A DNA stretch of 4,384 nucleotides from Candidatus Aenigmatarchaeota archaeon (GTDB lineage: Archaea; Aenigmatarchaeota; Aenigmatarchaeia; Aenigmatarchaeales; JACQIB01), in the NCBI GenBank assembly GCA_046760225.1, contig JBHIDR010000046.1:1-4384 (forward strand), written 5' to 3'. Each line of letters starts with the position of its first letter. Positions within the stretch are counted from its first letter, which is position 1. Made by a program: the position numbers. This document shows positions 1 through 4,384 of this stretch, piece by piece.

Positions 1-3000
1 AGTGAGGAAAGCCGTTATAACGTCTCCCCAGAGGAGAATCGACCTTGCATTAAGGCTGATAACACAGGGGAGCTACCAGAAGTCCCATGGAAAGGGAAAG
101 AAGATGGAAGAGGCACTGGCAAACGAACTCATTGCATGCTATGATTATGATTCTTCAAAATCCACTGCAATAAGGGAAAAGGAAAGAATAGAAAGAGAGG
201 CTGCGGGAGCAAGGTAATAGCAAAAAGATTTAAATATACTTCTACTGTATAATTGGAACATATCAATAGGTGAAAACAAATGGCAGAAAAAGTAGAATTC
301 CAGACAATCAAAGCAGAAGAAACAAAGTTCGGAACCAACAACTTTATAGAGGTTGCAAGAAAGAAGGCAATATCCGAGAGAGGTGAGAACGAGTTTATCT
401 CTGTTTCCAGGGGGTTCTTTGCACCCGATGGAACAAAGCGTTTCACCAAGAGCATTGCAATTCCTGTGGAAGTTGTTGATTTCGTTGCAGAGAAACTGAA
501 GGTTGTCAAGGAGTAATTTCAAGCCAATAAGAACCCAAGAATGGGTGTTTCCTTACTTGGTTAGGTATGTGGAAAACTAAAAACAAAGGAGGATGAAAAA
601 TGGTAGCAAAGGAAGAATATTCCGAGAAAGTGCAGGCTCTAATGAGCAACCCCAAGAACATCCGCAACATAGGCATTGTTTCGCATAACTTCTTCAGTTG
701 TGGTTGAGAAGTGCGAAAATACATCATGGAAAATGCATATCCAAGGATGCCCGCATTATGATAGATGACGGGAGACTTATAGCTGCTAAGGATATTTTCA
801 AACAACTTTCTCCGCTAGGTAGACCCATCAAGAATAGTGATAATGAGGTTGTTTATGACGTGAGTAAGTGCGGCCTGAGGGTGCTCTCGCTTAATAAAAA
901 CAATATGAAACTAGAAAGCAAAGAGATACGTCTCATTTGGAAGCTTAAGACCTCCGAAGAGCTTTTCAATGTGGAGCTTGACAGCGGATTATCTGTAGCA
1001 ACGACACCTGAGCACTTATTTTTGACGTTCGATGGTAAGGACATCAAAGAAGTTCCCGCAGAACATCTTAGGGAAGGACAATTCATCATATGTGCAAGGA
1101 CTGTGAACTATAATCCTGCTTCCATTGAGGAAATGAAGAGGGAGATTATGTTAAAACTCTCCGGACGACAGGAATTTATAGTCAAGTTGAATGATATCTT
1201 CGCATCTGAGATAAAGAGCAGAATAATGGATATCGGGATAGAAGAAGTATGGAAGAGTATAGCCACACATTATAAGAAAAAGGACTTTTATTCATCATGC
1301 ATCTATCATGGGAGATACAGATTAAGGGACATCGTGGCTTTGTGCAAGTACTTCGAAGTAGGCCTTGACAGGCTCTATGACTCCATTGAGAATATTGCTT
1401 ATAGAAAAAGCTTGAAGAAACACGGTAAGCTATCAACAAGGATGAAACTTCCGAAAAGTGAAAAGGGCTTTTCTGAGCTGCTTTATGCGATAGGACTCAT
1501 ATTCGGGGATGGCTGCAGGACATTTATAACAAATAATAATGAACATTTGCAGAAAAGATTCTTGTATATAATGAAAATGTTAGGCTTTAGGCCAACAGTT
1601 GAAAAGAGAGCCAACAGGGCAACCAATGTTCTAAGCAACGGTGGAATGACATTCTTAAACTTCATGATAGAAGTGTTTGATTATCCCATAAAAGATAAGA
1701 CGAAGAGCATAAGAATATCAGAGTTCATAGAAATGCTGGATAAAAGATTCATAGCAAGTTTTCTGCGCGGCTATTTTGACGCGGACGGTACAATTGAAAG
1801 AGGAAGGAGCGCCATTTCGATTACTTCCATGAGCAATAGAATGCTGAAAGACCTGCAACTGTTATTATTGAGATTCGGTTGCCAGTCAACCTTGAACAAG
1901 GACACCCTATACATATCAGGTCAGTCTGCAAGGATGTTTGCGTATAGGATAGGTTTTTCAACTGATGGCAAGATTTCGAGAATGAACAAGCTCGTGGGAA
2001 AGGCAAAATCCTCGAAGAATACGGATGTCGTGCCAGTTGATGCATCGTTGCTCTCATTTGCTGGATCTAGATTCAGGGGATATAAGGTAGGAGATTTAAC
2101 GGCCACGTCCTTTTCGTTGCAAAGTATGACTGAGGGCATAGAGTATGTTCCTTCAACTATAAAAAAAATAATGGACGGTGACGTGAGTTTTGTTAAGGTC
2201 AAGTCCATAGAGAGAACAAGGGAAAATGAAGTATTTGATTTTACAATCCCAGATAATCATAACTTTATTGCTGAAGGAATGATTATACATAATACTTGCC
2301 TCACGGACAACCTGGCCGCCGCGGCAGGGATGATGGCAAGGGACCTTGTTGGAGAAAGGATGCTCACATGGATCGACGAACAGGAAAGAGAGCGGCTCAT
2401 GACAATCTACGGTGCAACAGTAACAATGGCGCACGAATATGAGGGTGAGAAGTACCTCATCAACCTTCTGGATACTCCTGGCCATGTTGATTTTGGCGCA
2501 GACGTTACGCAGGCTATGCGTGCTGTTGATGGAGGAGTGGTTCTGGTCTGCGCTGTTGAGGGAATAATGCCACAGACAGAGACAGTGCTAAAGCAGGCAC
2601 TGGCTGAAAGGGTAAAGCCTGTTCTTTTTATCAACAAGGTGGACAGGGCAATAAAGGAACTGAAGCTCACGCCCGAGGCGCTCCAGAAAAGGCTAGCTAG
2701 GATAGTAGTCAATGTCAACAAATTTATCCAGCGTCATGTTGAAGAACAGTACAGGGACAAGTGGGTGGTAAAAGTAGAGGACGGCTCTGTTGCATTCGGC
2801 TCTGCACTGAGGAAGTGGGCAATATCAATTCCTGCTATGAAGAAGTTCAATGTAACTTTCAAGGACATCATAGAACTATGCGCTGCTGGCAAGGATGAAG
2901 AGCTGGCAAACAGGGCACCAATGAACATTGTTGTCATGGACATGGTTGTGAAGCACCTTCCTGCTCCAACAGAAGCGCAAAGGTACAGGATAGAGAAGGT

Positions 3001-4384
3001 ATGGAAAGGTGATCCAGAGAGTGAAGTGGGCAAGCAGCTAATGAGCTGCGATCCCGATGGGAAGCTGGCTGCTGCGATAACAAAGGTTGTTTATGACCCC
3101 CATGCAGGCATGATTTCAACTGCAAGGATATTCTCAGGAAAACTGAGAAAAGGGGAGACAGTATACCTGCATGACCTGGGAAGGCAGGCCAAGATACAGC
3201 AGGTAACAACCTTCATAGCAGACAAGAGAATACCTGTTGAGGTCACTCCTGCTGGAAACATTGTGGGACTGGTGGGGCTGACAGAAGCAATTGTAGGAGA
3301 GACAATGTGCGACCCTGAGTTCATTATCGAGCCCTTTGAAGCAATAACACATATATTCGAGCCTGTTGTCACAAAGGCAATCGAGCCCAAGAGCCCGCAG
3401 GACCTGCCAAAGCTCATAGACATCCTCAAGACACTCAACAGGGAGGACCCCACACTCAGGATAAAAATAAACCCTGAGACAGGAGAGACACTTGTCTCAG
3501 GCCTGGGAGAGCTCCATCTTGATGCCAAGGTAGAGAGGAAGATAAAGGAAAAGGGAATTGAGATCCATGCATCCCCGCCCATAGTTGTTTACAGGGAAAC
3601 AGTCACGGGCGAGAGCCCTGAGATAGAGGGAAAGAGCCCGAACAAGCACAACAGGTTCTATATCTCTGTTGAGCCCATGCCAGCTGAAATCTACAGGGCA
3701 ATGATGGAGGGTGTGATAAAGGACGCTGATATAAAGGGAAAGAAGGTTGAGATACTAAAAGAGCTTGAAAAGGTTGGCATGAGCAGGGACGATGCAAAGA
3801 ACACAAAGATTATTCATAATCACTGCATTTTCATTGATGACACAAAGGGAATACAGTACCTGAACGAGGCAATGGAACTGATAAAGGACGCTTTCAAGAG
3901 GGCGGTGGACGAGGGACCGCAGGCAAAGGAGCCCTGTGCAGCAATCATAGTGAGGCTGACTGATGCTTCCCTGCACGAGGATGCTGTGCACAGGGGGCCT
4001 GCGCAGGTGATGCCTGCTGTAAGGATTGCAATACATGAGGCAATGCTGAAAGGAGGCACAGGCATGCTGGAACCAAAGCAGATATTGAGAATAGACACGC
4101 CGCAGGACTACATAGGAAATGTCTCAGGCGAGGTGAACAACAGGAGAGGGGAGATAATGAACATAGAGCAGGAGGAATTCTCTTCTGTTCTTACTGTGAA
4201 GCTGCCTGTTGCAGAAATGTTCGGGTTTGAGGGACAGCTGAAGAGCGCAACAGGAGGAAAAGGTTTCCAGTCGCTAATGGATGTTGTGTTCGAGAAGGTG
4301 CCAAAGGACCTTGTGCCGCAGGTAGTTGGCAGGATAAGGGACAGGAAGGGCCTTCCAAGGGAACTTACAAGGGTGTGAGACAGT

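Follow-up and report, generated by a model that had tools for sequence, protein, structure and literature searches.

How can an EF-2 gene interrupted twice in its P-loop still code for a functional elongation factor? The question was raised by the window, i.e., the entire 4384-nt contig C46 of G000, a DPANN Aenigmatarchaeota MAG of 0.85 Mb (83 contigs, 83% completeness). An earlier note had placed an EF-2 gene at 600-4378, broken by a 32-nt bulge-helix-bulge (BHB) intron and an intein, and each of the elements was found at its coordinates on the whole contig sequence (Table 1).

Table 1. Positions of the EF-2 gene features in the window.
Feature	Position	Strand	Basis or remark
GGAGG, Shine-Dalgarno-like	588..592	+	7 nt upstream of EF-2 ATG; direct sequence reading
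EF-2 exon 1	600..686	+	ATG at 600; 29 codons, MVAKEEYSEKVQALMSNPKNIRNIGIVSH; translation
Central BHB helix, 5' strand UCGC, exon side	681..684	+	pairs with 713-716, 4/4 pairs
5' bulge AU/A	685..687	+	predicted cut between 686 and 687
Predicted BHB intron, 32 nt	687..718	+	removal restores frame and conserved peptide
Intron hairpin	688..712	+	7-bp helix, 688-694 with 706-712; 11-nt loop
Central BHB helix, 3' strand GCGA, intron side	713..716	+	pairs with 681-684
3' bulge AA/A	717..719	+	predicted cut between 718 and 719
EF-2 exon 2, N-extein part, IHHGK (remainder of P-loop)	719..733	+	translation, relatives
LAGLIDADG intein, 520 aa	734..2293	+	Pfam; conserved residues in aligned EF-2 inteins
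Intein Cys1	734-736	+	present
Intein block B TPEH	1004-1015	+	T..H present
LAGLIDADG motifs	1496-1513 and 1772-1789	+	both catalytic Asp present
Intein terminal His-Asn	2288-2293	+	followed by Thr+1 at 2294-2296
EF-2 C-extein	2294..4378	+	Thr+1 at 2294-2296; stop codon 4376-4378; Pfam

Exon 1 ends with ..NIGIVSH, its last codon specifying the P-loop His, and the insert lies directly 3' of this codon and shifts the EF-2 frame. The long frame restarts at 719, in a register two bases off that of exon 1, and remains open for 1219 codons, and the unspliced exon 1 frame runs into TGA at 705-707, with a product of only 35 aa. The gene caller had missed exon 1, as had been pointed out: the called gene P0001 encodes 1206 aa without it and, as worked out from this length, starts inside the intein. 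The C-extein gave Pfam matches to GTP_EFTU, EF-G_D2, EFG_III, EFG_IV, and EFG_C and was 83% identical to that of the genus mate G001 over 689 aa, with zero stops. Six GTP_EFTU matches were detected in the genome (an 83% complete MAG), and one of them was EF-2. A second intact EF-2 copy could sit on DNA missing from this MAG.

In the archaeal BHB motif, two 3-nt bulges flank a helix of 4 bp (PMC5829648), and each bulge is cut behind its second base (PMC2738675). The geometry previously claimed for the EF-2 insert, with a 4-bp central helix, 3-nt bulges, and a 7-bp intron helix, was present in full. Cuts predicted by this rule restored NIGIVSHIHHGK, a peptide conserved in relatives. Two cut pairs restore this peptide, one of them canonical for a BHB; among 5000 shuffles of the 32-nt insert, one formed a canonical BHB whose cuts restored the peptide. 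The N-terminus spliced in silico was 95.7% identical to that of G001 over 70 aa, in agreement with the near identity claimed before, and the EF-2 frames of G001, G002, and G003 (725, 733, and 734 aa, respectively) were indeed uninterrupted. Among the relatives' loci compared, all 29 matched the spliced N-terminus and 25 were uninterrupted over these 70 aa.

The minimum-energy fold of 665-740 was no more stable than the shuffled sequences (z -0.39, with -0.5 reported previously). Its central helix grew to 6 bp (679-684 paired with 713-718), so the 3' bulge would vanish in this fold. The extension was not conserved, U680 of the EF-2 gene being replaced by G in G005 and G027. The 7-bp inner helix shows covariation, and the outer exon–exon helix is weak, with three of its first six positions paired. 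The EF-2 BHB would therefore be a relaxed form of the strict hBHBh', and an endonuclease of relaxed specificity may be needed for its cleavage. The Rfam search over 500-900 yielded nothing relevant, the sub-threshold sR52 match (E 0.53) being the only one. The assignment of the EF-2 insert to the archaeal BHB introns, as defined at the sequence level, is supported.

The intron-specific pattern was detected in three of the 371 genomes of the phylum (G000, G005, and G027) and the reversed-pattern control in none. The introns at this site are structured and 31-32 nt long, and G005 and G027 were assembled independently. The pairs were counted by a script with structure-based registers, since the MAFFT gap fell in the helix. 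The strand 681-684 of the central helix was identical in the three introns, and all 33 pair cells were paired in comparison to 11-18 of 33 in the slid controls, three sequences only entering this count. Five of the seven hairpin pairs varied on both sides and one on a single side, with none broken.

The test covered 13 inserts, of which nine lie in EF-2 genes of eight genomes and the others in aIF5B, aIF2-gamma, and RtcB (two) of this genome. Twelve were canonical BHBs restoring a conserved peptide; in the remaining one, from G020, three of the four central pairs were formed. In the shuffle control, run separately for each of the 13 cases, a canonical peptide-restoring BHB was obtained in 0-15 of 5000 trials. 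The twelve inserts differ in sequence and phase and share the 4-bp exon–intron helix and a constant spacing of the two 3-nt bulges. The same kind of element had been announced at nearly the same site in aIF5B and aIF2-gamma, and each of the two genes does have a BHB insert within the codon for the P-loop His, placed two bases 5' of the EF-2 site. In this genome, the inserts comprise 22 nt in aIF5B (C3:14523-14544), 31 nt in aIF2-gamma (C3:19481-19511), and 30 and 32 nt in RtcB (C35:1544-1573 and 1646-1677), and the predicted spliced RtcB peptide equals the uninterrupted RtcB of G001 across both junctions. Comparison with G001 also revealed inserts in Top6B (30 nt, C2:16536-16565) and Cbf5 (38 nt, C20:7685-7722), the latter at the published site of the crenarchaeal cbf5 intron. 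Hence, at least seven predicted interruptions of the BHB type were counted in protein genes here (EF-2, aIF5B, aIF2-gamma, RtcB twice, Top6B, and Cbf5). The EF-2 intron is one among many, a context that the earlier note undersold. EF-2 genes across the class carry further inserts at several recurrent sites. The presence of the inserts varies even among genus mates: G001 lacks those of EF-2, aIF5B, Top6B, and Cbf5 and both of RtcB. The aIF5B gene was uninterrupted in five of five relatives checked, and EF-1alpha is uninterrupted as well.

The loose BHB motif was not enriched genome-wide (16311 matches versus 17005 in a Markov shuffle), and the filter for joined ORFs was not specific (770 versus 695 at random positions), so the motif by itself proves nothing. 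A stricter scan returned 45 ORF-joining matches and recovered the EF-2, aIF2-gamma, and RtcB intron 2 inserts; ten other matches, upon inspection, looked like junk or antisense frames. The motif-only census was replaced by the comparison with G001. Among EF-2 genes of other families, the 17-nt gaps of G077, G065, and G112 and the fragmented gene of G117 gave no canonical BHB. No BHB assignment was reached for further interruptions of G000 relative to G001 (on C1, C3, C8, C9, and C45), and the G001 frames at four scanned interruption sites (C1, C3, and C8) had no Pfam match.

The second interruption begins five codons (15 nt) past the RNA intron, as claimed, and its length of 520 aa is close to the earlier estimate of about 500 aa. 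Pfam identified Intein_splicing (9.6e-29) and LAGLIDADG_3 (3.6e-16), i.e., a HINT domain for splicing that is interrupted by an endonuclease domain of the LAGLIDADG type. Across its whole length, the intein shares 51.5% identity with the EF-2 intein of G008, and it matches solved inteins weakly. Cys1, T..H, both LAGLIDADG Asp residues, His-Asn, and Thr+1 were conserved in 27-28 of the 28 aligned EF-2 inteins, all 28 being inserted after GK, and HHGK/TCLTDN is contiguous in intein-less homologues (G001 and others). Thirty-seven longer proteins were found with the intein. EF-2 accounted for 29 of them (about 976-1340 aa, the window's own included), and their hosts are Aenigmarchaeota, Woesearchaeota, Nanoarchaeia, and Pacearchaeota. 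All these sequence features support the assignment of the EF-2 insertion as an intein, one of an intein family of DPANN EF-2 proteins. The EF-2 and aIF2-gamma inteins are not closely related: they did not match each other in BLASTP, and the aIF2-gamma intein matched the G008 EF-2 intein only weakly. Nothing pointed to a recent jump of one intein between the two genes.

Two EndA paralogs, both composed of an N-terminal and a catalytic domain, are encoded on C2, and the genome also has the RtcB ligase. The two predicted introns in the ligase's own gene would create a bootstrap problem. ARAGORN called introns in 13 of the 21 tRNA genes.

Altogether, we consider it highly probable that the EF-2 gene is functional and that its P-loop DNA received two independent selfish insertions, both of which are removed. 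From the BHB structures and their covariation, the exact restoration of frame and peptide, the splicing enzymes encoded in the genome, and the conservation of the key intein residues, we infer that the RNA is cut and joined and the protein is spliced. The EF-2 pre-mRNA would fold locally into the bulge-helix-bulge, the tRNA-splicing endonuclease (two EndA paralogs) would cut it at 686/687 and 718/719, and the RtcB ligase would join the exons to encode ..IVSH-IHHGK... Translation of the spliced mRNA should give a 1248-aa precursor, from which the 520-aa intein would excise itself via Cys1, T..H of block B, the terminal His-Asn, and Thr+1. This would leave EF-2 at 728 aa and release the LAGLIDADG homing endonuclease as a separate protein. 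By default, we read the EF-2 intron as having no function of its own. It would be one of the lineage-wide mini-introns of 20-38 nt that occupy the best-conserved codons of essential genes, those for catalytic motifs. Imprecise loss at such sites would be lethal, and the conserved flanks may favor their recombination-driven spread.

The proximity of the two kinds of insertions raised a further idea, to which we assign a small probability, namely that mini-introns are tied to homing-endonuclease attack and are not random parasites. Short insertions would arise or be selected in the recognition sites of intein-encoded endonucleases and shield the allele from intein invasion. They would survive only if removable from RNA as BHB introns, so RNA splicing could represent an immunity against a DNA parasite or a repair scar left by it. 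The idea is fitted by the clustering of the EF-2 inserts (seven in six genomes of this order precede the intein point by 1-15 nt, with that of G027 at the point itself) and by the pairing of intron and intein in aIF2-gamma. It is also fitted by RtcB intron 2, a few codons from a ~1.46-kb insert of G003, presumably an intein, and by Top6B, described as a known intein host.

The mini-introns might instead be regulatory devices that make translation-factor supply depend on the tRNA-splicing capacity, as the EF-2, aIF5B, aIF2-gamma, and RtcB mRNAs would all require EndA and RtcB, with RtcB exerting feedback on its own mRNA. Such a circuit would resemble HAC1/XBP1, the unconventional mRNA splicing by a tRNA ligase. 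Three translational GTPase genes (EF-2, aIF5B, and aIF2-gamma) are interrupted around the same His codon and RtcB is interrupted twice, which speaks for this view, as does the mere 35-aa peptide expected from the unspliced EF-2 message. In Haloferax, the 5'-UTR BHB intron of HVO_1309 also seems important for efficient expression of this gene (PMC7714728). A circuit ought to be conserved, however, and the introns are not: six inserts are missing from G001, none of the five relatives checked shares that of aIF5B, and the same-site EF-2 intron is confined to 3 of 371 genomes. Moreover, EF-1alpha is uninterrupted, and two of the interrupted genes, those of Top6B and Cbf5, do not encode translation factors. 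We consider the regulatory role improbable.

Translational bypassing or frameshifting over the 32 nt, with the hairpin as a bypass signal and no RNA splicing, is very improbable. In gene 60 of phage T4, the translational hop involves a hairpin and an early stop after the take-off point, as well as matched take-off and landing codons. The EF-2 insert likewise presents a hairpin after the take-off point, and an early stop follows there too (TGA 705-707), but CAU (684-686), the codon of take-off, and AAA (716-718), the last codon of the gap, do not match, and landing at the next CAU (722-724) would cost two conserved P-loop residues. Neither a 4-bp exon–intron helix nor two 3-nt bulges at fixed distances, as seen in 12 of 13 inserts, are needed for a bypass, and the Cbf5 insert occupies a crenarchaeal splice site shown by cDNA (PMC2738675). 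An assembly or sequencing artefact or a decaying pseudogene, as the short 4384-nt contig, the 83%-complete MAG in 83 contigs, and the uncalled exon 1 might hint, is hardly credible in view of the structured 31-32-nt insert with compensatory changes at the same site in two independently assembled genomes, the 1219 open codons downstream, the C-extein 83% identical to that of G001, the intact intein residues, and the gene being the sole EF-2 found in the genome.

The BHB intron of the crenarchaeal cbf5 pre-mRNA was reportedly the subject of Watanabe 2002 and Yoshinari 2006. Its splicing was reported on the basis of cDNA (Yokobori 2009, PMC2738675). The predicted EF-2 intron resembles it as a short coding-region BHB intron in the codon of a catalytic residue, cut between the second and third bulge base, and in the patchy gain and loss and the association with a two-subunit endonuclease (PMC2738675). 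The EF-2 case differs in the host codon (P-loop His), the lineage (DPANN Aenigmatarchaeota), the occurrence of several introns per genome and gene, and the intein 15 nt downstream, and it is predicted whereas cbf5 splicing has cDNA behind it. With HVO_1309 of Haloferax volcanii, it shares mRNA as a substrate of the splicing endonuclease besides tRNA and rRNA; the HVO_1309 intron, shown experimentally, lies in the 5' UTR (PMC7714728), whereas the predicted EF-2 intron breaks the reading frame. Archaeal tRNA introns possess the same motif, a similar size range, and presumably the same EndA/RtcB enzymes, but in EF-2 there is no tRNA body to aid recognition and the exon–exon helix is weak.

For archaeal mRNA, PMC7714728 describes one coding-region BHB intron (cbf5) and one 5'-UTR case, and the reference lists of reviews up to 2025 cite the cbf5 papers only. 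Our literature search, subscription journals excepted, found no BHB introns in EF-2, aIF5B, aIF2-gamma, RtcB, Top6B, or Aenigmarchaeota mRNAs. If confirmed, the introns would mean that the tRNA machinery regularly splices mRNA in an Aenigmatarchaeota lineage, that gene prediction in DPANN MAGs systematically cuts short or breaks up essential genes, and that the cbf5 intron site is common to Crenarchaeota and DPANN. How cbf5 BHB introns are gained was posed as an open question in PMC2738675, and RNA introns and inteins clustered in a few codons would, if confirmed, offer a system for studying such gain.

Passages of PMC4760082 list aIF2/COG0532 among archaeal intein hosts and do not name EF-2 there. 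The EF-2 intein, homologous to those of 28 other DPANN EF-2 proteins, resembles the P-loop inteins of translational GTPases in combining HINT and LAGLIDADG domains after GK and in having Cys1, His-Asn, and Thr+1. What sets it apart from the other P-loop inteins is the predicted RNA intron 15 nt upstream.

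The EF-2 gene starts with an ATG at 600, preceded by GGAGG at 588-592, and its exon 1 of 29 codons (the last ones reading ..NIGIVSH) ends at 686. The main EF-2 frame is two bases out of phase with exon 1 and readable back only to 698. When 32 nt (687-718) were taken out, both frames fused as ..NIGIVSH-IHHGK; without splicing, translation would stop at the TGA at 705-707, after 35 aa. The frames and the junction bear out the insert that the earlier note placed after the P-loop His codon. The EF-2 domains GTP_EFTU, EF-G_D2, EFG_III, EFG_IV and EFG_C were recognized by Pfam. The database protein P0001 (1206 aa) lacks exon 1, which indeed remained uncalled, and, as worked out from its length, its start falls inside the intein.

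The EF-2 N-terminus, spliced in silico and freed of the intein, found a match in all 29 relatives' loci compared, and in 25 of them the 70 aa compared were uninterrupted. The likeness to the genus mate (G001) claimed before amounted to 95.7% identity over 70 aa, and the continuous frames ascribed to relatives were found in G001 (725 aa), G002 (733 aa) and G003 (734 aa). Altogether, the frames, Pfam matches, relatives' frames and database gene call confirm the earlier observation in every detail. A single in-frame TAA, with no added length, was seen in the otherwise full-length EF-2 frame of G012 (L022).

By hand and by script, the insert region was read as a motif of the bulge-helix-bulge (BHB) type, [UCGC]AU/A(ACUUCUU)-11 nt-(GAGAAGU)[GCGA]AA/A, in which slashes mark cuts. 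The rule given for cbf5 introns in passages of PMC2738675, cleavage between the second and third bulge bases, leads exactly to 686/687 and 718/719 when applied here. Only two cut pairs in the insert restore the peptide, the canonical one among them, and in shuffled inserts a canonical BHB (4/4 central pairs and at least 5 hairpin pairs) arose at a restoring cut pair in 1 of 5000 trials. Counting against the BHB, the fold of 665-740 did not exceed shuffles in stability (z -0.39), as stated before, the exon-exon outer helix paired at only 3 of its first 6 positions, and the minimum-energy fold added two A-U pairs to the central helix, abolishing the 3' bulge. G005 and G027, which carry an intron at the same site, have G where the window has U680, so that conservation does not extend to these extra pairs.

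The intron-specific pattern (TCGCAY, 24-36 nt, GCGAAAATHCAYCAYGG) was present in 3 of 371 phylum genomes, namely the one studied (G000), G005 of the same family and G027 of another family; the reversed pattern gave 0 matches in the same 371. Across the three introns, 33/33 pair cells (those of the central helix plus hairpin pairs 1-7) were paired, as against 11-18/33 when the 3' partner was shifted by 1-3 bases. Five of the 7 hairpin pairs changed on both sides, one changed on one side and one was invariant. Identity ranged from 0.65 to 0.72 among the introns and from 0.62 to 0.82 in exon 1.

The LAGLIDADG intein, put earlier at about 500 aa, was recovered at close to that size, with Pfam matches to Intein_splicing (9.6e-29) and LAGLIDADG_3 (3.6e-16). 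Queried against longer proteins, it gave 37 matches: 29 were EF-2 proteins of the same domain composition, the window's included, carried by Aenigmarchaeota, Woesearchaeota, Nanoarchaeia and Pacearchaeota, and the other 8 were MCM and other hosts. The window's intein was aligned with those of 27 database EF-2 proteins (P0027, with 60% query coverage, was excluded). Insertion after GK, Cys1, the block B Thr and His and the penultimate His were common to 28/28; each of the two LAGLIDADG Asp residues, the terminal Asn and Thr+1 were kept in 27/28. Such residue conservation points to an ordinary, probably active member of an intein family that is already represented in databases. Passages of PMC4760082 include aIF2/COG0532 among archaeal intein hosts without naming EF-2, and no printed description of the EF-2 intein was found in the literature searched.

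The genome encodes the RtcB ligase and two EndA paralogs, separated by a nitroreductase gene, an arrangement that suggests a two-subunit splicing endonuclease. Going by its title, a 2006 work of Yoshinari reportedly tied such an enzyme of Crenarchaeota to relaxed motifs and the splicing of pre-mRNA. ARAGORN detected only 21 tRNA genes, with introns called in 13 and many of these at non-canonical positions. This set fits heavy use of EndA/RtcB splicing, and the tRNA genes are probably heavily disrupted and under-detected. Passages of PMC2738675 likewise connect the crenarchaeal two-subunit endonuclease with pre-mRNA splicing and relaxed motifs.

Among six GTP_EFTU matches in the genome, EF-1alpha and an EF-1alpha-like gene were uninterrupted. 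The aIF5B insert, which leaves an exon 1 of only 13 codons, forms a canonical BHB, [TTGG]AC/A..[CCAA]AA/A, and was absent from all 5 relatives checked (G001, G002, G003, G005, G027). The aIF2-gamma gene repeats the intron and intein arrangement of EF-2; BLASTP found no match between the two inteins. At both junctions, the RtcB peptide predicted after splicing has the same residues as RtcB of G001, which is uninterrupted. The first RtcB intron site corresponds to a gap of about 25 nt in G005. The RtcB gene of G003 (L106) holds an insert of about 1.46 kb, presumably an intein, at DIN/C, a few codons from the second site.

About 571 kb of G001 (2299 open frames) was compared with the genome; the conserved-flank filter left 16 rows, 2 of which, topoisomerase VI B and Cbf5, resolved cleanly. 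The Cbf5 insert folds with a 13-bp exon-exon helix, a central helix of CCUU with AAGG, bulges AG/A and AA/A and an irregular inner helix. According to passages of PMC2738675, this is where the cbf5 intron sits in Crenarchaeota, with cDNA sequences reported for it; we treat the Cbf5 insert as this organism's own positive control for the splicing of mRNA. G001 lacks the EF-2, aIF5B, RtcB, Top6B and Cbf5 inserts. Fully canonical motifs were found in 12 of 13 tested inserts, and shuffles reached this state in 0-15 of 5000 trials per insert. The short interruptions on C1, C3, C8, C9 and C45 had conserved flanks and no canonical BHB. A Pfam scan of the G001 frames at the C1, C3 and C8 loci gave no match.

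Features of the window, of other contigs of the genome (C numbers) and of relatives' EF-2 genes
Gene	Feature	Position	Length	Remarks
S7	3' end	2-217		Pfam Ribosomal_S7
ORF between S7 and EF-2		280-516	78 aa	no Pfam match
EF-2	central helix	exon 681-684 with intron 713-716	4 bp	
EF-2	bulges		two of 3 nt	AU/A and AA/A
EF-2	intron hairpin		7 bp	11-nt loop
EF-2	intein	734-2293	520 aa	Cys at 734, His-Asn at 2288-2293, Thr at +1
EndA	two paralogs	C2:22790-23278 and about 23747-24352		each N-terminal and catalytic domain
aIF5B	insert	C3:14523-14544	22 nt	inside P-loop His codon (C/AY), central helix UUGG
aIF2-gamma	insert	C3:19481-19511	31 nt	inside P-loop His codon (C/AY), central helix UUGG
aIF2-gamma	intein	C3:19529-21403	625 aa	after GK
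RtcB	insert 1	C35:1544-1573	30 nt	in frame, no stop
RtcB	insert 2	C35:1646-1677	32 nt	frame-shifting
top6B	insert	C2:16536-16565	30 nt	AEFFE/KNRHLL, canonical BHB, in-frame stop
Cbf5	insert	C20:7685-7722	38 nt	between letters 1 and 2 of catalytic Asp codon
	interruptions relative to G001 frames	C1 about 43261-43294, 46300-46378; C3 about 26441-26482; C8 16971-17054; C9; C45		short
EF-2, G021 (L060), G024 (L062)	inserts	one base downstream of window's site	32, 33 nt	
EF-2, G038 (L018)	insert	between Gly and Lys codons	33 nt	
EF-2, G027 (L027)	same-site insert	1425-1455		
EF-2, G027 (L027)	second insert	about 1470-1500	30 nt	inside Lys codon, the intein insertion point
EF-2, G020 (L020)	insert	WIDE/QER	32 nt	
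EF-2, G023 (L063)	insert	GHVD/FG	29 nt	

In the relatives' EF-2 genes, BHB inserts occupied at least five distinct sites (L018, L020, L027, L060, L062, L063, L090-L092). The genes of G020, G021, G023, G024, G027 and G038 belong to the same order and have their inserts close to the window's site. EF-2 of G008 lacks an intron and has an intein homologous to the window's, 51.5% identical along its whole length. Five genomes from other families of the class were compared. EF-2 of G046 had the intein only, G077 and G065 had 20-nt introns with covarying hairpins at WFDE/QER, and G112 had a 32-nt intron at GHV/DFG; several 17-nt gaps and the fragmented gene of G117 yielded no canonical BHB. The WxDE/QER site is occupied in three families (G020, G077, G065).

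The structures, the peptide restoration, the covariation and the enzyme genes are observed; the catalytic steps of RNA and protein splicing we infer, most likely in the following order. Once transcribed, the EF-2 pre-mRNA would fold locally as the BHB, EndA would cleave it at 686/687 and 718/719, and RtcB would join the exons. The spliced mRNA would encode a 1248-aa precursor, from which the intein would excise itself as a free homing endonuclease, leaving an EF-2 of 728 aa.

All the resolved introns occupy motif codons that are the most conserved in the host gene: the P-loop His and following Gly-Lys codons, GHVD of the DTPGHVD segment, the HEGY/GF and GY/DINCG segments of RtcB, and the catalytic Asp of Cbf5. 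Their presence varies even between the genus mates G000 and G001. We read the inserts as selfish, function-less mini-introns, persisting where imprecise loss is lethal, with conserved flanks permitting recombinational spread. Across the order, 6 genomes have between them 7 EF-2 inserts situated 1-15 nt upstream of where the intein inserts, and RtcB intron 2 lies near the large insert of G003; judging by these positions, the inserts might mark or block homing-endonuclease target sites, which we consider unlikely. A regulatory device, tying translation-factor supply to EndA/RtcB and letting RtcB feed back on its own mRNA, is weakened by the patchy intron presence, even among genus mates, and seems unlikely.

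As mini-introns and inteins, both elements belong to known kinds according to the literature and database record. Passages of PMC7714728 (2020) give cbf5 as the only mRNA intron reported besides that paper's own 5'-UTR case, and for pre-mRNA, a 2025 and a 2018 paper cite cbf5 papers only. In the literature searched, with subscription journals outside it, no BHB introns were found for EF-2, aIF5B, aIF2-gamma, RtcB, Top6B or Aenigmarchaeota mRNAs. The interest lies in the number of such introns, in their host genes, the RtcB ligase itself among them, and in their repeated pairing with inteins.

The genome comprises 851 kb in 83 contigs (83% complete), the window being all of C46. At the end of the window, 54 nt (4327-4380) are identical to positions 1-54 of C44, whose first gene is EF-1alpha; C46 and C44 are probably contiguous, in which case the genes would run S7, EF-2, EF-1alpha. 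A second copy of the ORF between S7 and EF-2, with 72% nucleotide identity, was found on C9 (19740-19893).
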